A program made the position numbers and the translations under genes. Source: a phage. From it: a DNA stretch of 64,000 bases. The DNA is taken from the sequence record PZ738962.1; one strand, 5' to 3'. The notes beneath the pieces were generated by a model, which worked only from the letters and a program-made list of their open reading frames with translations, was not told the DNA's origin and did not search any database. Each line of letters starts with the position of its first letter. Position 1 is the first letter of the stretch. This document shows positions 30,002-60,708 of this stretch, piece by piece.

Positions 30002-30520
30002 TTAGTAGCCGCGTTCTTGACGGGCGAAGTTTTCAGCATTTTTCAGATAGTACAGCTTGAAGATATCCTTAGCGGTTAAACCTAAGCCCAGCATTTTAAT
30101 CAGCACAAAATGCCAGATATCGATCAATTCCATCACAATTTCGGTTTTATCGTCATCTGACAGATCAGCAAATTTACGCGCTCGTGCTTCGCCGTGGTTC
30201 TTCTTCCACACTTTAGTAATTGCGCTTGCATCTTTGCCATTTGACATGCCACCCAGGGCAACATAAAGTTCTCGTGTCTCGTCGTCGATTGCGTCATCCC
30301 ACAACTTCATCCAGTCAAGGATCTCCCCGCAAGTTTCCAGCTTATCAGGATGCGGCACCCACTCAAATTTATCAGCTAGTGCGACCTGTAAGCCTTTTTG
30401 CATATCTAACATTACTTGCAGCGGATCTTTGCCGCTAGTGATTGCCTCGGAATACGCAATACCAGCTTTAGACATAGTTTCGTCGCTAACCAGACCAGCA
30501 CAAGAATTAAATTCTGACAT
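30002..30520 (-). CDS. 56: dCTP pyrophosphatase (dCTPase/dUTPase) gp56
   Basis: strong similarity to T4 gp56 as recalled (GEDPLxxMLDMQ, LYxALGGMSNG, DIWHFxL, YYLKNxENxxRQ); start at ATG 30520. Confidence 0.9.
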   Translation of the reverse strand: MSEFNSCAGLVSDETMSKAGIAYSEAITSGKDPLQVMLDMQKGLQVALADKFEWVPHPDKLETCGEILDWMKLWDDAIDDETRELYVALGGMSNGKDASAITKVWKKNHGEARARKFADLSDDDKTEIVMELIDIWHFVLIKMLGLGLTAKDIFKLYYLKNAENFARQERGY

Positions 30521-30534
30521 ATTCACCTCATTGA

Positions 30535-31563
30535 TTAAAATTTACAATATTTCATAAACCGCATTTTAGCCATCAGACCTTGTACGGTGTTCTCTTTGAT
30601 ATATTCCATGATCTGGTCGCGTGTAGCGCCCTCGTCCTGAATCATGGCGTTAACGTCTTTAGAATGCCACGGGCAGCGATCCCACAAAACAATCTTTTCC
30701 CCTGCATTGATAAACTTTTCCAGTCGGTGCATTGTATCGGCAGACCGTGGTTCCGCATCAAGTACAAACACTCGCTGGTCTGGGAAAGGGATTTCATCTA
30801 ATCCCAACGTACCGCCAGTAATTGCACACCCGTTATCAATAAACAATGAATCGATCGGACCTTCTAAGAAATACACTGGTTTACTCGGATCGGCGCGTTC
30901 AAGACCATAGACCTTACTCGCTAACTCGTGAGTTTTAATCGTCATATATTTGGTCTTTCCGTAATCCTTTCTCAATGCTCGCCCCTGAACGGATTCTATC
31001 TTGTTCTCGCGGTTAAAGATAGGAATAACTAAACGCGGTTCAGGTTGTGGATTCTTGAAAGTATCAGCCTTAATGTGATTTGCTACCTTTTGCCATTCTC
31101 TCGTGAAATACAGAAGATCCCATTTATCGTGGGGAATGCAACGATCACTGACATACTTTATTATAGGATGATTAGCCGGAAGAGTATCTAATCTCTCGCA
31201 GAAAGGCAATGTTTGCACTTTCTTAATCTCCGGCTTTTCTACCTTTTTCAGTGGCTTGAACGTGGTGTTCTTGTGGTCGCCTTGTTCCTTCCGTCGTTCC
31301 ATAAGCCATTCCCTGAATAAGTCCGGCTTATACTGTTTGAGAAATTCACCTAACGGCTGATTGTAGTTACAGTTGAAACAGCCACAACGCAAACTATCCT
31401 TATAGGTATAGATACGGAATCGCGCTTGAGTATGATTTTTCTTTGAGTCACCGCAGATCGGACAACTACAGACCAGCGTAAATGAGCTAGTATGCAACCG
31501 TTTAAAATTTCGTTCGCCGTATATGGCTTTTTCCGCTATTTCATAATCTGCGTAGTAAATCAT
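30535..31563 (-). CDS. 61: DNA primase gp61
   Basis: 342 aa; N-terminal zinc-binding CxxC...CxxC region and primase core; same length as T4 gp61. Confidence 0.85.
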   Translation of the reverse strand: MIYYADYEIAEKAIYGERNFKRLHTSSFTLVCSCPICGDSKKNHTQARFRIYTYKDSLRCGCFNCNYNQPLGEFLKQYKPDLFREWLMERRKEQGDHKNTTFKPLKKVEKPEIKKVQTLPFCERLDTLPANHPIIKYVSDRCIPHDKWDLLYFTREWQKVANHIKADTFKNPQPEPRLVIPIFNRENKIESVQGRALRKDYGKTKYMTIKTHELASKVYGLERADPSKPVYFLEGPIDSLFIDNGCAITGGTLGLDEIPFPDQRVFVLDAEPRSADTMHRLEKFINAGEKIVLWDRCPWHSKDVNAMIQDEGATRDQIMEYIKENTVQGLMAKMRFMKYCKF

Positions 31564-31572
31564 AATAACCTC

Positions 31573-31776
31573 TTATAGCTCAAATTTCATGAAAGTTCCT
31601 ACACTTTCATTTTCATTCTCTCCGTTCTCATCTAAGCCAAATTTGTAGACACTACCATCTGGAGATGTGTAAGAGAATACACGAAAACGGCCTACCGGGT
31701 CAAGTTCTGTAAATTCATATTCTTTTCCGGCTTCAAAAAGTGCATATGTGCTTTTAAGACATTTCATCGTAATCAT
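31573..31776 (-). CDS. hypothetical small protein (67 aa)
   Basis: ATG overlapping upstream stop (ATGA). Confidence 0.5.
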   Translation of the reverse strand: MITMKCLKSTYALFEAGKEYEFTELDPVGRFRVFSYTSPDGSVYKFGLDENGENENESVGTFMKFEL

Positions 31777-31931
31777 TTAAGCGCCACCGACAACAGAATG
31801 AGAACTACACCAACATACATTGTGACCTCGGATAACTTTTCTGTTTTTGTTTTGTGTCCAGATAATCCGAAAACAACAACACCGATAATAGCGGACAGCA
31901 AGCCAACGATAAACATGATGATACTAAGCAC
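31773..31931 (-). CDS. possible small two-helix membrane protein (52 aa, GTG start)
   Basis: AAGGAG 7 nt upstream of GTG; hydrophobic VLSIIMFIVGLLSAIIGVVVFGL...MYVGVVLILLSVAL; stop overlaps next start (ATGA); below track cutoff. Confidence 0.4.
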   Translation of the reverse strand: MLSIIMFIVGLLSAIIGVVVFGLSGHKTKTEKLSEVTMYVGVVLILLSVALK

Positions 31932-32100
31932 TGTCTTTCTCCTTTTTGCGTTTTTCTTTACCCGCTACACTAGGTCCGCGATTGGTAATAGATCCGCTCG
32001 TTTCACCTGCTGCGATCTTCTCAGGATTGCCGCCAGCATCGCCAGCGGTCATATCTTCTTTGAGTTTATTTTCTTCAACAAACTGTTTAAATCCAATCAT
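31924..32100 (-). CDS. possible small protein (58 aa)
   Basis: ATG overlapping upstream stop (ATGA); hydrophilic, Gly/Lys-rich; below track cutoff; plus-strand track ORF 31798..32154 judged antisense artefact. Confidence 0.35.
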   Translation of the reverse strand: MIGFKQFVEENKLKEDMTAGDAGGNPEKIAAGETSGSITNRGPSVAGKEKRKKEKDSA

Positions 32101-32474
32101 AGAATAATCTCTTTCAGTAAGTCAACAATCTGGTCTTTCGTCAGTTTATCCTGATTCTCGACAATCTTGATAACACAAGCATTAACATCTTTTCGAGTCA
32201 CGCGGGAGATCGTTTTAATACGATGAAACGGTTCGTAGAAATATACTGCTTCATTATAGAGAGCGGATACTTTACGACGCATTTGATCTTTATCTGACAA
32301 GAAAACAAGTGCTGTTTTATGACCTTCTACACCCGCCACGTTATATAGTTCAGCAACACCCCAGCGACCTTCCGGTTCAATCATTCCGGCGTGTTTACCG
32401 TCGATAAAAATAAGAATATCTCCGTTGAATGCGGTTTTGAATGCTACATCTTCCGGCGTAATCATATTTTTCAT
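32097..32474 (-). CDS. hypothetical protein (125 aa)
   Basis: ATG with AAGGAGAC upstream. Confidence 0.55.
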   Translation of the reverse strand: MKNMITPEDVAFKTAFNGDILIFIDGKHAGMIEPEGRWGVAELYNVAGVEGHKTALVFLSDKDQMRRKVSALYNEAVYFYEPFHRIKTISRVTRKDVNACVIKIVENQDKLTKDQIVDLLKEIIL

Positions 32475-32504
32475 AATATAGTCTCCTTAGAGTTTCATTA
32501 TAAA

Positions 32505-33140
32505 TTAATCTAATGTAGAAAGCAAATGTTTTGTTTCTTTCAGTTGTCGTTCAAGATTTTTGCGTTTCTCTTTAAGTTGCATTTTAGCATTATTTCGCTC
32601 TCTTGTAACCTCTTTATCAATGCTCTTATTCCAGTTATCAATATCAGAATAAGTTGGCATACCCAGTTCTAGACCTAATGCGGTTGGATGCAGGGTAACA
32701 GTCCATAAACCGCTAATCTTCTTAAATAGGTCGGGGTGTAGTGTACTATCTACATCTTCCGGTGTCAACTCTTTTTCTTCTTTCAGTGGTGGGATCTCGT
32801 CATATGGTTCCAGTGCATTTACTTTAATATCAGATACCTCATCAAAGAATCCGCGTACATCCGCAGGAAATACACAAGCAATTTCCCAACCGCGATCACG
32901 CAGAGAAGTAATATTTTTCACTCCCCCACCATGTGTGATGATTGAGGTGACATTGCCATCAAGGTCCACCGAATTTACGAGAAATGGCTTATCGTCTGTC
33001 AGATCATTATAAAACTGTGCTTCGGCTGTAGTCATCTCCAGAAACAGATCTCGGATCGGACGACCGTCAGGTGCGTTACCTTCCTTGAGAGTATAAAAGC
33101 GACTTACGATCCATTTTGGCGGTAAAGCATTAGCGATCAT
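32505..33140 (-). CDS. hypothetical protein (211 aa) with HGGG motif
   Basis: ATG with AGGAGATATAAC upstream; ITHGGGVKNI motif; basic coiled-coil C-terminus; no family confidently recognised. Confidence 0.55.
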   Translation of the reverse strand: MIANALPPKWIVSRFYTLKEGNAPDGRPIRDLFLEMTTAEAQFYNDLTDDKPFLVNSVDLDGNVTSIITHGGGVKNITSLRDRGWEIACVFPADVRGFFDEVSDIKVNALEPYDEIPPLKEEKELTPEDVDSTLHPDLFKKISGLWTVTLHPTALGLELGMPTYSDIDNWNKSIDKEVTRERNNAKMQLKEKRKNLERQLKETKHLLSTLD

Positions 33141-33190
33141 GTTATATCTCCTATCAAATCATTCACCAGCGCCCCGCAGGGCGCATTTTA

Positions 33191-34603
33191 TTAGAAAGTC
33201 ATGTTATTTGCTAGCTCGTCGAGTTTTTCTCGTTTCTCGGCTTGTTGTGCGCTTTGTGGTTTAACTTGTGCATTCTCCTGATCTGCGATCTGGTTTGATA
33301 CTTCATACCAACGCTGATTGCCTTTTTTCACACCAACGTTAAACCGTGAATAATAGTTCTTGTCACCGTAACGAGACTTGATCTGCTTCATGAGTTGAAC
33401 GCCCATTTTAGCCAGGTCTTCGGTTTCGATAACACCCAACATAAAATCGGCTGTAGCCGGAAGACCTGCTGATTCAGCGGTATCACTCATGTTAAGGTCT
33501 GACGCATCCCAACCTGCGCGGGTAGTCTGTGCCGCAGTCCAACCAACAACATCCCACTTAACAAAAAATCCTCGCAGTTCTTCCGCAATCGCCTTAACTA
33601 GTGTGTAACTATTTTCAGAGTATACACGCAAGCGAGACGATGCGCAAATCCCCAGATAGTCAACAATCACAACATCAGGTTTAAACTGTTTCTTGAGTCG
33701 CAATTCATTCATTAACGCCTCAAAGTGATTGGAGTTCGCGCCACCAGTCGGATACTGCTTGATCATCAATTTTCCAACCGGACGATCTCCGATCTTCTTA
33801 TTCTTAACACGCTTCATACGTGCGGAATATTCCGCAAAAGAAACATTACCATTATCCAATTCATCTAATGTAATGTCAAGCAAGTTTGCGTCGATACGTT
33901 TGGCTACGACATGCTCTGCCATCTCCATTGAGATATACAATACATCATAACCACATTCCATATAATCCGCAGCAAGAGAACACAATCCAAGCGATTTACC
34001 AACATTTACACCAGCAAGCAACACATTTAGCGTTTTTCTTTCCGCCCCTCCTTTCGTGATTTTATTCAACATCGGCAGCTTAAACGGGATCTTATTCGCT
34101 TTAGTCTGATATAGCAAGAATCGTTTTTCAAAGTCATTAAACCAGTCATGACCTACATCAGAATCAAACGTAATGGATAGTGCTTCCTGCATGATCTCAG
34201 GAATAGCTCCCTCACTCGGCAATTTCTTATTCTGTTTCTCTTTTGGTAGTTGTGCGTTCGCCTGAATCTCTAGCGCCCGTGACATTGCATTATACATGGC
34301 ACGGTCACGAATAAATTTTTCTGTTTCCTTCATTAACCAATCAAGGTCTTCCGGTGTATTCTCCAGCGAATCAAGAAGAGTTTTAGCCCCTTCATATGTT
34401 GTCTGATTGCCTCTCTCCTTGTCCAAAGCAATCTGTAATGCAGTTGGCGTAGGAATATTGGAATATTCGTCTACGTGCTTTTTAATCAGCTTATAAATCA
34501 GTTTTTCTTCGTCTTCGGTGAAGTAGTCCGCTTTAAGGTGAGGCCATACATTCGTAAAGAATGCGCCATTGTAAATCAACTGTGAAAAGATAGTTTTAAT
34601 CAT
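33191..34603 (-). CDS. 41: replicative DNA helicase gp41 (DnaB-like)
   Basis: 470 aa; Walker A GVNVGKS, DnaB-like motifs; collinear with T4 gp41 as recalled. Confidence 0.9.
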   Translation of the reverse strand: MIKTIFSQLIYNGAFFTNVWPHLKADYFTEDEEKLIYKLIKKHVDEYSNIPTPTALQIALDKERGNQTTYEGAKTLLDSLENTPEDLDWLMKETEKFIRDRAMYNAMSRALEIQANAQLPKEKQNKKLPSEGAIPEIMQEALSITFDSDVGHDWFNDFEKRFLLYQTKANKIPFKLPMLNKITKGGAERKTLNVLLAGVNVGKSLGLCSLAADYMECGYDVLYISMEMAEHVVAKRIDANLLDITLDELDNGNVSFAEYSARMKRVKNKKIGDRPVGKLMIKQYPTGGANSNHFEALMNELRLKKQFKPDVVIVDYLGICASSRLRVYSENSYTLVKAIAEELRGFFVKWDVVGWTAAQTTRAGWDASDLNMSDTAESAGLPATADFMLGVIETEDLAKMGVQLMKQIKSRYGDKNYYSRFNVGVKKGNQRWYEVSNQIADQENAQVKPQSAQQAEKREKLDELANNMTF

Positions 34604-34917
34604 ACATAGCCCCCAACTACACGCATAACAAAGGTCTTGAGTTTATACCAGAAAGTTTCTTTTTTCAACTTTTCTTCTGCTTCTTTGATCTGCGCGGTTA
34701 ACGCCTTAATGACGTGTGGATATACCACATCACGATCTGACGGCGTGGAGTAGTCGACCACAATACCTTTAGTGTCTGGATCGTATTCAACATTATGAAT
34801 ATAGACAATATGATGTTCTCCCTCTTCATCAACAATTATCAATTCCTGAATAACTGTCTTCATTGCTTCTTGAATCAAACCGTGTGCTTCTTCTAAACTT
34901 GTTGGCTTCTTATCCAT
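34600..34917 (-). CDS. gp40-like protein (by position between 41 and uvsX)
   Basis: 105 aa; synteny with T4 gene 40; sequence identity not verified. Confidence 0.4.
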   Translation of the reverse strand: MDKKPTSLEEAHGLIQEAMKTVIQELIIVDEEGEHHIVYIHNVEYDPDTKGIVVDYSTPSDRDVVYPHVIKALTAQIKEAEEKLKKETFWYKLKTFVMRVVGGYV

Positions 34918-34972
34918 AATATAATCCTCTCTAGATATGAAAAAGGGGCACGTAGCCCCTTTACTACCATTG

Positions 34973-36043
34973 TTATGCTAACATATCTTCGATTTCTTTG
35001 TCAACTGCTTCGTCGCTGATCACTTGCCCCAGCTTATAATGATCGTTGATTGCTTCGTTAAACTTATCGTTTGTCAGAAGTGGTTTCCAGAACTCAATGC
35101 TATTGGTTTCTTTAGCACGGAACTTGCGTTCTTCGGTTTCCATCTCTCCGGTCTCAGTATTCAGGATTGAACGAGAATACCAGCCGTTTGACGGTTTCAC
35201 TACCCAGCCTAACTCTACAGCCAACTCCAGCAAACCGGAATAAGGATCGATACCACCGCTAAATGTTACGCTAATCGGGAACTTAGATTTTTCTTTAACG
35301 GTTCGCGATTTTTCCGCATTCAGGATAAAATCATAACCAGTAATTTCGGTTCCTTCTTTCTGCTGACGACGACCAATAATGAAAACTTCATTGGCTGAAT
35401 ACATCGCGCCAGTACCGCCGGACATAACGGTCTTACTAAACATTTCTTGCGTTTCGTAAGTGTGGTTAATAGCGATGCACGGGATATCATTCATAGTCAG
35501 ATACGGCGTAACCATACGGAACAAGCCTTTAAGTGCTTTAGCTCGCGTCATATCCTGTGCGGATTTCTCATTAATCGCGTCTTCAACTTCTTTTTTACTT
35601 GCTAAGTTACCGATTGAGTCAATAAAGATGATCACTTTATCTTCGCGGGTAATTTGCTCAAGCTGGTTCATGATTTCAAATTTAAGTTCTTCGATGTTCT
35701 TGATTGGAACATGCACCACGCGATCAGGATCTACACCCATAGATTCAAGATAAGCGGATGTAATACCGAACTCAGAATCAAAGAACAAACACGCCGCATC
35801 AGGATTCTGTTTCATGTATGCACTAACGCAAGTTAATCCCATGTTTGATTTAAAGTGCTTAGACGGACCAGCAAAGAAAATCAGACCAGATTGAAAGCCT
35901 TTTTTAAGATCACCTGAAAACGCAATATTCAGCATCGGGATCTTAGTGCGAGTATTTGTTTTTTCGTTAAAGAAGCTGGATTTAGACAGTACCGCAGTAG
36001 TTTTCAGGGTAGAGTTCTTTTTCAGTTTTTCCAGTACAGACAT
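34973..36043 (-). CDS. uvsX: UvsX recombinase (RecA-like)
   Basis: 356 aa; RecA-fold motifs (FFAGPSKHFKS Walker A-like region, IFIDSIGNL Walker B-like); synteny. Confidence 0.9.
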   Translation of the reverse strand: MSVLEKLKKNSTLKTTAVLSKSSFFNEKTNTRTKIPMLNIAFSGDLKKGFQSGLIFFAGPSKHFKSNMGLTCVSAYMKQNPDAACLFFDSEFGITSAYLESMGVDPDRVVHVPIKNIEELKFEIMNQLEQITREDKVIIFIDSIGNLASKKEVEDAINEKSAQDMTRAKALKGLFRMVTPYLTMNDIPCIAINHTYETQEMFSKTVMSGGTGAMYSANEVFIIGRRQQKEGTEITGYDFILNAEKSRTVKEKSKFPISVTFSGGIDPYSGLLELAVELGWVVKPSNGWYSRSILNTETGEMETEERKFRAKETNSIEFWKPLLTNDKFNEAINDHYKLGQVISDEAVDKEIEDMLA

Positions 36044-59605: not shown

Positions 59606-59887
59606 TTAACCATTAATCTTGTTTTTGACTACAAAGGATCGGAACTCATCAAAGCCACCGATATAATCACCGTCATAGAAAATCTGCGGCATGGTGGCAA
59701 TAACTTCTACCCCTGCGCGATCCTGAATATCGGCAATGATAGAATCAATCTTTACCGGACGACCGTTTTCGTCCACACCATCATTAACCGGAATGTAGAT
59801 GTAAGGGATCTTACGCGATTCACAAAGGCGCTTTGCATTCTGGCAATACTTACAGTTGTAACCTTCAAAACCAAAAATTTCTACCAT
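59606..59887 (-). CDS. nrdC: glutaredoxin (NrdC-like thioredoxin, CKYC active site)
   Basis: CKYC active site, MPQIFYDGDYIGGFDEFRSF C-terminus resembling T4 NrdC; start at ATG 59887. Confidence 0.75.
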   Translation of the reverse strand: MVEIFGFEGYNCKYCQNAKRLCESRKIPYIYIPVNDGVDENGRPVKIDSIIADIQDRAGVEVIATMPQIFYDGDYIGGFDEFRSFVVKNKING

Positions 59888-59895
59888 GTTATACC

Positions 59896-60708
59896 TCAAT
59901 CTACGTTAGTTACATAAACTTCTTGTGTATCAGAAGACTTGCCACCTGAACGATCTAGGCAATAGGTCTTATTCAACAGGACGCAGTTTAAATCATTCCG
60001 CTTGATAAAGTCAAGAAGATGATCATTTACCTTTCCCTTATGATGTGTGACATTACTGATACCAAACTGAAAACCACGCGCCATAATAGATTCTACCCAC
60101 TGATAGAATTTAATCTCTTCCTCGTCACTCCAGAACTTATTATATTCCGCAGAAGTGATAAGGTACGGCGGGTCCAAATAAACGAAATCACCCGGCAAGA
60201 TCTCGATCTCGTCATAACGACCAGACGTAAAACTGATTCGACCGTCTTTGTTTTCTTCCTTAAAATTCAGGACACGCTCTACCGCGTTTTCGTTAAAAGT
60301 CCGGCGACCAAAATTAGCATTAAATTCGCCCTTCCTGTTATGACGGTTAATGTTGCTAAAACTGTGCTGAATCAGAACAAACAGAGATAGCGGATCTGGA
60401 TTCTCATTATACTTCTTACGGAATGCCATGTAAGCATCTTTATCATCACGAGACAAACCATTTTCGGCAATAATCCTCTTGATCATAAAAACCGGATCAG
60501 GACACTCATCAATGGCCTTGTAAGCGTCAATTAAGCGGTGATCATAGTCATTAGCCAGCACATCCCCTTCGACGTACAGAGACACACTCAAGCCACCACA
60601 AAAGGCATCGACAAAGCGGTTATAGTGCTTAGGGAAATACTTACTAACACCAGGCAATAACTTTTCCTTATTGCCCGTATAGGGAATTAAACCTAATGCT
60701 TTCTTCAT
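59896..60708 (-). CDS. dam: DNA adenine methyltransferase (Dam)
   Basis: 270 aa; FxGxG-like SAM motif FVDAFCGGLSVSL and catalytic DPPY; collinear with T4 Dam as recalled. Confidence 0.9.
   Translation of the reverse strand: MKKALGLIPYTGNKEKLLPGVSKYFPKHYNRFVDAFCGGLSVSLYVEGDVLANDYDHRLIDAYKAIDECPDPVFMIKRIIAENGLSRDDKDAYMAFRKKYNENPDPLSLFVLIQHSFSNINRHNRKGEFNANFGRRTFNENAVERVLNFKEENKDGRISFTSGRYDEIEILPGDFVYLDPPYLITSAEYNKFWSDEEEIKFYQWVESIMARGFQFGISNVTHHKGKVNDHLLDFIKRNDLNCVLLNKTYCLDRSGGKSSDTQEVYVTNVD

Follow-up and report, generated by a model that had tools for sequence, protein, structure and literature searches.

The interval between helicase gene 41 and primase gene 61 in an RB49-like phage: five small genes with a possible counter-defence role, and a relationship between gp61.1 and capsid protein gp23

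Five small genes between helicase gene 41 and primase gene 61

The window analysed here is a 64,000-nucleotide (nt) stretch of phage DNA from sequence record PZ738962.1, and our subject is the string of five small genes that it carries between the genes for the replicative helicase gp41 and the primase gp61, for which our literature search returned no functional study in the genus Krischvirus. The analysis indicates that this string occupies a slot that it shares with phage T4 and whose content varies between related phages, that four of its genes are unrelated to any gene of the T4 slot, and that the fifth encodes gp61.1, a small protein whose core is homologous to the segment of capsid protein gp23 that spans the maturation cleavage site. 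Positions 30500-34650 of the window are 98-99% identical to the Escherichia phages Phi1 and RB49 and match 59 phage records, all of them RB49-like (genus Krischvirus). The minus strand carries, in this order, uvsX, gp40, gp41, the genes for proteins of 211, 125, 58, 52 and 67 amino acids (aa), gp61, gp56 and a ModB-like gene. An original prediction, made from the letters of the window, had placed five small open reading frames (ORFs) between helicase and primase, and all five were recovered at those positions on the minus strand, bounded upstream by gp41 (33191-34603) and downstream by gp61 (30535-31563). They are Dc2 (RB49 ORF021c; 211 aa, 32505-33140), recognised from its ORF and the RB49 and Phi1 annotation; Dc1 (RB49 ORF020c; 125 aa, 32097-32474), recognised from its ORF and the RB49 annotation; the gp61.1 homologue (58 aa, 31924-32100), assigned by similarity to T4 gp61.1 and phrog_1823; ORF018 (ORF018c; 52 aa with a GTG start, 31773-31931), assigned by phrog_18360 and hydropathy; and ORF017 (ORF017c; 67 aa, 31573-31776), assigned by phrog_9181. 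The string is already annotated in the GenBank records of RB49 and Phi1, as Dc2, Dc1, Gp61.1, ORF018c and ORF017c, and is not new as annotation.

The genes are closely packed, with junctions of several kinds. Dc1 meets 61.1, and the 52-aa ORF meets ORF017, in an ATGA overlap of the kind that also links gp40 with gp41 outside the string; the overlap between 61.1 and the 52-aa ORF is 8 nt long (GTGCTTAG); and spacers of 50 nt (gp41-Dc2), 30 nt (Dc2-Dc1) and 9 nt (ORF017-gp61) each contain a Shine-Dalgarno site. The tight ATGA coupling that had been ascribed to the whole string therefore holds for two junctions within it and fails for the rest, where there is an 8-nt overlap or a 30-nt spacer. 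Judged from its overlap, Dc1 is translationally coupled to 61.1.

All five are true coding genes under purifying selection, with a constraint roughly two to four times more relaxed than that on the flanking replication genes. Measured against L004, a divergent relative whose gp41 is 94% identical, the ratio of nonsynonymous to synonymous substitution rates (dN/dS) is 0.10 for ORF017, 0.19 for the 52-aa ORF, 0.15 for 61.1, 0.08 for Dc1 and 0.18 for Dc2, compared with 0.04 for gp41 and 0.06 for gp61. A comparison with L005, which is more distant, agrees with this; the values for the 52-aa ORF range from 0.19 to 0.49. The complete five-gene set is kept in all 59 Krischvirus records, the five reading frames and their lengths are maintained in relatives at only 32-81% protein identity, and a PHROG family exists for every one of the five, each labelled 'unknown function'. 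The small ORFs are thus conserved under purifying selection (dN/dS 0.08-0.19), as the original prediction needed them to be. An Rfam scan of the region matched no RNA family. On the plus strand, a 118-aa ORF at 31798-32154 runs antisense to the 52-aa gene, 61.1 and the 3' end of Dc1 and is probably a by-product of the coding strand.

The 58-aa protein is gp61.1 and resembles a junction segment of gp23

The 58-aa protein, which had been described as Gly/Lys-rich, is not novel: it is a homologue of T4 gp61.1, with 49% identity in BLAST (E 3e-18), and matches phrog_1823 over its full length (E 3e-24). It is the only ORF of the string with a counterpart in the T4 interval. By tblastn the gp61.1 family is found in 1,451 phage records, a number that includes some matches to gene 23 itself.

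The window protein is built of a leader (MIGFKQFVEE), a conserved L-K-E site, a segment homologous to residues 64-101 of gp23 and a Lys-rich tail, and it matches gp23 of both RB49 (E 1e-9; L013 440-577) and T4 (E 8e-9; L015 1946-3511). Searched against the whole PDB, gp61.1 retrieves only T4 gp23 chains, at residues 64-101, and each of the 61.1 proteins, drawn from several genera, that were compared directly with gp23 aligns with it at approximately residues 57-103, with E values of 1e-5 to 1e-9. The aligned stretch of gp23 spans the Glu65/Ala66 site at which gp21 removes 65 residues during maturation, together with the N-arm; residues 66-105 of gp23 lie in the prohead interior, with a probable contact to the scaffold (PMC9546572). 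Across 13 members from at least nine genera, the gp61.1 consensus reads [LIVF]-x-E / [DES]-M-[VIT]-AGD[SA]GG..-IA.G.T[ST]GA[VI].N.GP, followed by the Lys-rich tail. The [LIVF]-x-E element stands at the gp23 cleavage position in 12 of the 13, long forms included; in the remaining member it is displaced by a single residue. Cleavage by gp21 at this position would give a predicted product that begins DMTAGDAGGNPEK in Krischvirus and DMVAGDSGGNPEN in T4.

The region ahead of the cleavage-like site takes two forms. One, found in T4 and Krischvirus, is a leader of 10-16 residues. The T4 version, MKTFKEFIKE, is identical to the internal protein IPI (MKTFKEF) over its first seven residues; IPII and IPIII start with MKTYQEFIAE. 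In such leaders the aromatic residues 4 and 7 have been mapped as determinants of capsid targeting, and Ile 8 and Glu 10 as determinants of processing by gp21 (PMC9026906); at the level of sequence, these positions are matched both by T4 61.1 (F4, F7, I8, E10) and by the window protein (F4, F7, V8, E10). In other Straboviridae genera 61.1 is a protein of 149-177 aa in which a conserved N-terminal domain of about 100 aa replaces the leader before the same site, as in the Acinetobacter phage Konradin (L021 2183-2659), the Aeromonas phage AS-zj (L022 2198-2647), the Buttiauxella phage GuL6 (L024 995-1486) and the Serratia phage Muldoon (L025 965-1498). These long forms explain the match to phrog_2086. 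Some genome annotations label 61.1 'major capsid protein', and the literature that we searched contained no report of gp61.1 as a virion component.

The position of 61.1 is nearly constant in the T4-like contexts examined outside Krischvirus. The gene directly adjoins the primase gene in T4, the sister-lineage sequences L006, L008 and L009, Konradin, AS-zj, the Klebsiella phage K65, Muldoon and the Escherichia phage VR26, and is separated from it by one small ORF in GuL6. In Krischvirus the 52-aa and 67-aa ORFs stand between 61.1 and 61, a variant of this position in which 61.1 is no longer immediately upstream of the primase gene.

Dc2 and Dc1 are lineage-restricted proteins that evolve faster than their neighbours

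Every one of the 59 Krischvirus records contains Dc2, which is found in no phage record outside the genus. Its homologues amount to 13 clusters among 5.8 billion proteins, and an exhaustive hidden Markov model (HMM) search of 1.84 billion representatives returned only seven true relatives; an eighth match, the 2,127-aa repeat protein P0042, in which a short 'VNS.D.DG.V.S' stretch was matched twelve times, was judged spurious. A search for more distant relatives among isolate phages and in IMG/VR found none beyond Krischvirus. The relatives belong to uncultured sister lineages, and in all of these (L004-L009) the Dc2 homologue directly follows gp41, with a spacer of approximately 10-50 nt in the window, L004, L005, L006/7, L008 and L009/10 despite a differing remainder of the interval. 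In the sister lineages Dc2 retains 23-44% identity where gp41 retains 67-79% and gp61 61-72%.

From its N-terminus the protein comprises a domain of about 100 aa, a linker that is acidic and variable, a second, small domain and a C-terminal helix of basic character. An AlphaFold2 (AF2) model built from a shallow alignment reached a predicted local distance difference test score (pLDDT) of 48, its sole confident part being the helix at 167-210; the C-terminal segment is basic (pI 10) and draws only weak Pfam matches of the coiled-coil type, and the modelled helix is probably a coiled coil. The ITHGGGV motif to which attention had been drawn is present in the window protein, as proposed, and is not conserved: close relatives carry IIAHGGEV, IITQGGTL or IITHKGEC at this position, and distant ones have lost it. 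The invariant residues of the family are mostly aromatic, Gly or Pro, with one Arg (W10, Y16, Y44, F53, V55, G62, R96, F99, G144, P152), a pattern that looks structural rather than catalytic. Six of eight Dc2 family members weakly match phrog_5347, a family of unknown function, and Dc2 has no match in Pfam, NCBIfam, PADLOC or the PDB. The family, structure and profile searches gave no housekeeping homology for the 211-aa protein, in agreement with the original prediction. Two candidate identities were examined and rejected. A match to DHFR in the PDB search (E 0.036) was judged to be chance, and AdfA (phrog_3781), a protein of similar length (208 aa against 211 aa) encoded in the same interval, has no BLAST match to Dc2, shares no PHROG with it and reaches an hhalign probability of 0.1%.

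Dc1 is restricted in a similar way: only 22 homologue clusters were found, and phrog_16174 is the one family that the 125-aa query matches. L004, L005, L006 and L009 carry it and L008 lacks it; identities are 34-69% where gp41 retains 67-79%. Its AF2 model, again from a shallow alignment, has a pLDDT of 54 and is unusable. Dc1 resembles TifA in one short motif, PF.R...RxT[KR][KR]..C. As a divergent TifA it was rejected: hhalign gives 0.8%, and no member of the Dc1 family matches PF23945 or phrog_2375, 12748, 3272 or 8921 at E values up to 1, in tests in which T4 TifA, run as a control, matches its own families. When Dc2, Dc1 and ORF017 were searched against the PDB by sequence and profile, no match had an E value under about 0.04, and the alignments A3 and A5 contain no conserved catalytic residues.

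The 52-aa membrane hairpin and ORF017

The 52-aa ORF had been described as a membrane peptide of two helices that starts at a GTG behind an AAGGAG site, and our analysis bears this out. Hydropathy reveals two hydrophobic segments around a basic loop, SGHKTKTEK, and this layout is kept in L004 at 65% identity and in L005 at 32%. The AAGGAG lies 7 nt upstream of the GTG, and both are conserved in RB49, Phi1, W115 and ECD7; L004 has ATG at the position of the GTG codon. The RB49 and Phi1 annotations give a 47-aa form with an ATG start and the W115 annotation a 52-aa 'putative membrane protein'; the conserved AAGGAG and GTG, the ATG of L004 and the W115 annotation together lead us to prefer the GTG start over the 47-aa ATG form. 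The gene is absent from L006, L008 and L009. In L005 a second, tandem 50-aa two-helix membrane ORF (MSLFSFLAGVFVCLISIVMLCSGKKKCKFH) lies at 1745-1897 on the plus strand, where the gene caller of that contig missed it. The 52-aa ORF was also considered as a homologue of Imm or Sp and rejected, having neither sequence nor profile similarity to them; the test against Spackle (phrog_1586) found no similarity, the peptide being a two-transmembrane (two-TM) hairpin with no soluble domain.

ORF017 encodes a small acidic protein (pI 4.5) that is 97-100% identical among the Krischvirus matches listed. Homologues at 46-58% identity occur in early small-gene arrays of T1-like Drexlerviridae (Badaguanvirus, Henuseptimavirus) and of a Hafnia phage; examples are those of the Escherichia phage IME347 (Drexlerviridae; L017 1853-2053) and the Enterobacter phage N5822 (L018 2501-2682). 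The N5822 copy is apparently frameshifted or mis-annotated. No relatives were found in bacterial genomes, and this distribution indicates a phage-only small gene that is shared horizontally and exchanged between unrelated phage families. In ECD7 a free-standing HNH homing endonuclease gene (L020 1072-1635) lies between ORF017 and 61, at the site of the 9-nt spacer of the window. Phage Whisky matches there in two pieces whose total length equals that of ECD7, which suggests the same insertion.

The T4 interval and the location of dmd in RB49

The T4 slot encodes three inhibitors that bind host toxins directly, Dmd, TifA and AdfA, as well as Sp, a protein of superinfection exclusion. The original prediction stated that the T4 interval holds dmd and spackle; the T4 record, in which the order is 41, dmd, 61.4, sp, 61.2, 61.1, 61, confirms this and adds 61.4/tifA, 61.2/adfA and 61.1. 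Gene 61.4 has been renamed tifA as an inhibitor of ToxN, 61.2 is adfA (anti-DarT), and dmd inhibits RnlA; the region, it was proposed, 'may be an anti-TA island', TA standing for toxin-antitoxin (Srikant et al. 2022). AdfA has no enzymatic domain and binds DarT1. Dc2, Dc1, the 52-aa ORF and ORF017 show no BLAST similarity to the proteins of the T4 interval and share no PHROG or Pfam family with them.

None of the five ORFs matches Dmd, as had been stated: BLAST and the phrog_2102 HMM are negative, and hhalign probabilities are at most 1%. The step from this absence to a hidden functional analogue is undercut by the genome itself, since RB49 (AY343333) carries a bona fide dmd at 59798-60001 (L012 16798-17001, minus strand), approximately 49 kb from the 41-61 interval. 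The 67-aa protein aligns with T4 Dmd across 60 residues at 45% identity (E 3e-17) and matches phrog_2102 with E 3e-31; at 80% identity or more it occurs in 59 records, as many as there are Krischvirus records. With Dmd encoded elsewhere, the argument for a hidden analogue fails for Dmd. The neighbours of RB49 dmd include no relative of TifA, AdfA or Sp, and searches of the 64-kb window and of RB49 43,001-143,000, which make up almost all of the genome when taken together, detected no homologue of these three proteins or of Imm. That the interval hides analogues of TifA, AdfA or Sp is a possibility argued from position.

Evolution and expression of the interval

Comparison of related phages reveals a slot with two fixed elements, Dc2 after 41 in this clade and 61.1 before 61 in T4-like phages, and variable content between them. 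The interval contains Dc2, genes for 99-aa and 242-aa proteins, Dc1 and 61.1 in L006, only Dc2 and 61.1 in L008, and Dc2, a gene for a 147-aa protein, Dc1 and 61.1 in L009. In K65 and VR26 sp and a tifA-like gene, with other genes, precede 61.1, and in AS-zj the interval holds a homing endonuclease gene and 61.1. The GC content of the string is approximately 3-5 points below that of the flanking genes. The interval thus displays the marks of a hyperplastic region, namely variable content between core genes, ORFs that are restricted to a lineage or shared between lineages, and insertion of a mobile endonuclease gene.

Two of the sister lineages carry a weakly Tad2-like gene downstream of gp56: L008 (10465-10746) and L009, which in addition has a Mom-like gene and an N6/N4 methyltransferase gene (L009 12108-12380, 11255-11884, 12384-13190). 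These genes mark the surroundings of 56/modB as a further variable accessory and anti-defence zone.

The best sigma-70-like promoter match, TTGACA-17 nt-GATAAT at 33851-33879 (minus strand), agrees with the consensus at 11 of 12 positions, lies inside gene 41 and coincides with a 'hypothetical early promoter' annotated in RB49; as a consensus match it could drive transcription of the string. No late promoter (TATAAATA) was found on the minus strand at 31300-35000, and a search of the coding strand for MotA boxes gave one MotA-like box, which is unconvincing. Within the 50-nt gp41-Dc2 spacer, the RNA can form a stable hairpin, GCGCCC-UGCG-GGGCGC (33169-33184, minus strand), whose tetraloop is of the UNCG type; it appears in minimum-free-energy and centroid folds alike. 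In the relative L005 this junction has no hairpin, and a different hairpin lies between Dc2 and Dc1. The hairpin of the window scores as terminator-like on the plus strand, where no gene ends.

Discussion

The content, synteny and evolutionary behaviour of these five genes are consistent with the interval being the Krischvirus version of the hyperplastic 41-61 region, for which the likeliest role, by analogy with T4, would be in host takeover, counter-defence or exclusion; we hold this reading at about even confidence. Under such a model 61.1 would be the ancestral anchor of the interval, and Dc2, Dc1, the hairpin peptide and ORF017 would be accessory genes that entered at two points, one between 41 and 61.1, the other between 61.1 and 61. 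All five genes lie on the strand of uvsX, 40, 41, 61 and 56 and leave no room for promoters of their own save candidates within coding sequence, so that early or middle co-transcription with the replication genes is most likely; we infer this timing, as we do each of the functional assignments that follow. Translation would proceed from individual Shine-Dalgarno sites or by re-initiation at the overlapping stop and start codons. The four accessory genes contain no conserved catalytic motif, and their products would presumably act by binding host or phage partners: Dc2 might be an oligomeric binding protein assembled through its predicted C-terminal coiled coil, the 52-aa peptide an inner-membrane hairpin with a candidate role in superinfection exclusion, and ORF017 a mobile early host-interaction factor.

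Several points weigh against this reading. Similarity to Dmd, TifA, AdfA, Sp and Imm is absent at the sequence, HMM and profile-profile levels, and in hhalign comparisons of Dc2, Dc1, the 52-aa ORF and ORF017 with Dmd, TifA, Sp, AdfA and 61.1 no pair exceeds a probability of 5%. The five ORFs have no match in Pfam, NCBIfam or PADLOC, and the models of Dc2 and Dc1 (pLDDT 48 and 54) are too poor for a fold search. The presence of dmd elsewhere in the genome makes the logic of replacement weak for the Dmd function. Promoter-like matches number 16 where 9.9 +/- 3.4 are expected, which is not clearly above chance, and the transcription model is therefore one that we infer. The strict fixation of Dc2 after gp41 in five lineages fits a replication-linked role equally well as it fits synteny by descent, and it is from position and evolutionary behaviour that the role of the string is read.

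Other explanations of the string differ widely in their probability. That chance frames without coding function account for some of the small ORFs, or for all of them, could be argued from their shortness, their lack of any database function and the disagreement of two annotations on the start of ORF018, and is nevertheless an explanation to which we give almost no credence: dN/dS is well below 1 in all five, frames and lengths survive in relatives at 32-81% protein identity, the Shine-Dalgarno sites are correctly spaced, each ORF has a PHROG family, ORF017 is conserved across phage families and the region matches no RNA family in Rfam. A more substantial alternative takes its lead from the replication genes themselves and casts Dc2, and perhaps Dc1, as a lineage-specific primosome accessory that is co-expressed with gp41 and gp61, binds them and has no part in counter-defence. 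Its attraction lies in the position of Dc2 directly after gp41 in the window and in each of the lineages L004, L005, L006/7, L008 and L009/10, within the uvsX-40-41-61-56 replication cluster, and in the predicted coiled coil, which suggests oligomers. Against it, Dc2 evolves much faster than gp41 and gp61, with 23-44% identity against 67-79% and 61-72%, and is absent from all other T4-like phages despite their common gp41/gp61/gp59 machinery; RB49 moreover encodes its own gp59 helicase loader, and Dc2 has no nucleic-acid-binding or ATPase motif. We consider a primosome accessory improbable, and clearly less so than chance frames.

The 52-aa hairpin invites a more specific assignment, as a superinfection-exclusion or injection-blocking peptide that would correspond by position to T4 Sp and Imm. 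The two-TM hairpin with its basic loop is conserved despite identities of 32-65%, it has a tandem duplicate in L005, it is encoded in an early-type operon at the interval that sp occupies in T4, and no homologue of Sp or Imm was detected in the window or in RB49 43,001-143,000. Against this stand the lack of homology to either protein, a length of 52 aa that leaves no periplasmic domain to bind gp5 lysozyme as Sp does, the many other roles that small two-TM phage peptides can have, the weakest constraint of any gene in the string (dN/dS 0.19-0.49) and the absence of the gene from L006, L008 and L009; on balance the assignment appears unlikely, if somewhat less so than a primosome role for Dc2. 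For gp61.1 the relationship to gp23 raises the possibility of a head-directed function. The peptide would be targeted to the prohead core and cleaved by gp21 after [LIVF]-x-Glu, and its Lys-rich product of about 40-45 aa would then stay in the head, be injected along with the DNA or compete with gp23 for a partner common to both. Homology to gp23 across the maturation site and N-arm (E 1e-5 to 1e-9, with gp23 as the only PDB match), a leader that agrees with the capsid-targeting determinants at positions 4, 7, 8 and 10 (PMC9026906), retention of [LIVF]-x-E in 12 of 13 members and the location of gp23 66-105 inside the prohead, probably in contact with the scaffold (PMC9546572), all point in this direction. 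The genomic context points elsewhere: 61.1 belongs to a replication operon of early/middle type, its strand contains no late promoter at 31300-35000, and a head role leaves its constant adjacency to the primase gene unexplained. In addition, gp61.1 is not mentioned in a paper with mass spectrometry of T4 head proteins (PMC5694885). The leader may also be a generic N-terminal helix, as RB49 UvsW.1 (L013 9832-10068) starts with MISFKRFLVEA and is the sole match to it, no Krischvirus internal protein with a matching leader having been identified. We therefore offer the head peptide tentatively, as a possibility that we would sooner doubt than accept, although it is the strongest of the alternatives considered here.

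Returning to the interval as a variable accessory region, a combined proposal would hold both that gp61.1 is a miniature copy of the gp23 maturation junction, directed to the prohead core and cut by gp21 to a Lys-rich peptide that is either packaged and injected or serves as a decoy or competitor towards any partner of the gp23 N-arm, and that at least one of Dc2, Dc1, the hairpin peptide and ORF017 belongs to a new family of defence inhibitors. As a conjunction it is rather doubtful, slightly more so than the head peptide taken by itself. The relationship between gp61.1 and gp23 is nevertheless the most useful new observation of this study, as it supplies a testable hypothesis for a 'hypothetical' protein that is widely conserved in T4-like phages. 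The T4 interval has yielded three direct inhibitors of toxin-antitoxin defence, Dmd, TifA and AdfA, and a syntenic slot filled with unrelated orphan genes in common therapeutic Escherichia coli phages is therefore a reasonable place to search for proteins of counter-defence or exclusion. The string presented here is a candidate list and not a discovery, its genes having stood in GenBank as hypothetical under RB49 accessions since the early 2000s.

Set beside known systems, the string resembles its precedents in some respects and departs from them in others. The RB49 and Phi1 annotations contain the same five genes at 94-100% protein identity, without functions and with ORF018 as a 47-aa ATG form, whereas the sequence favours the 52-aa GTG form. 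The 52-aa peptide shares with T4 Imm the two hydrophobic helices and the character of an early-operon membrane protein, but is much shorter than the 83 aa of Imm and has no similarity to it; with T4 Sp it shares the position in the interval, but has neither a periplasmic domain nor sequence similarity. The leader of gp61.1 matches the targeting sequence of T4 IPI, IPII and IPIII at four functionally mapped positions, and its core is homologous to gp23 64-101 with the Glu of the cleavage position kept, whereas gp61.1 itself is merely 54-58 aa long in T4 and Krischvirus and is encoded in the replication cluster, away from the head genes. With the T4 41-61 interval as a whole, the Krischvirus string has in common the slot between helicase 41 and primase 61, the strand, the tight packing of small genes, gp61.1 and a content that varies between related phages. 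It differs in that four of its five genes are unrelated to any gene of the T4 interval, that its dmd lies at another locus, that no homologue of TifA, AdfA or Sp was found in the window or in RB49 43,001-143,000, and that additional genes stand between 61.1 and 61.

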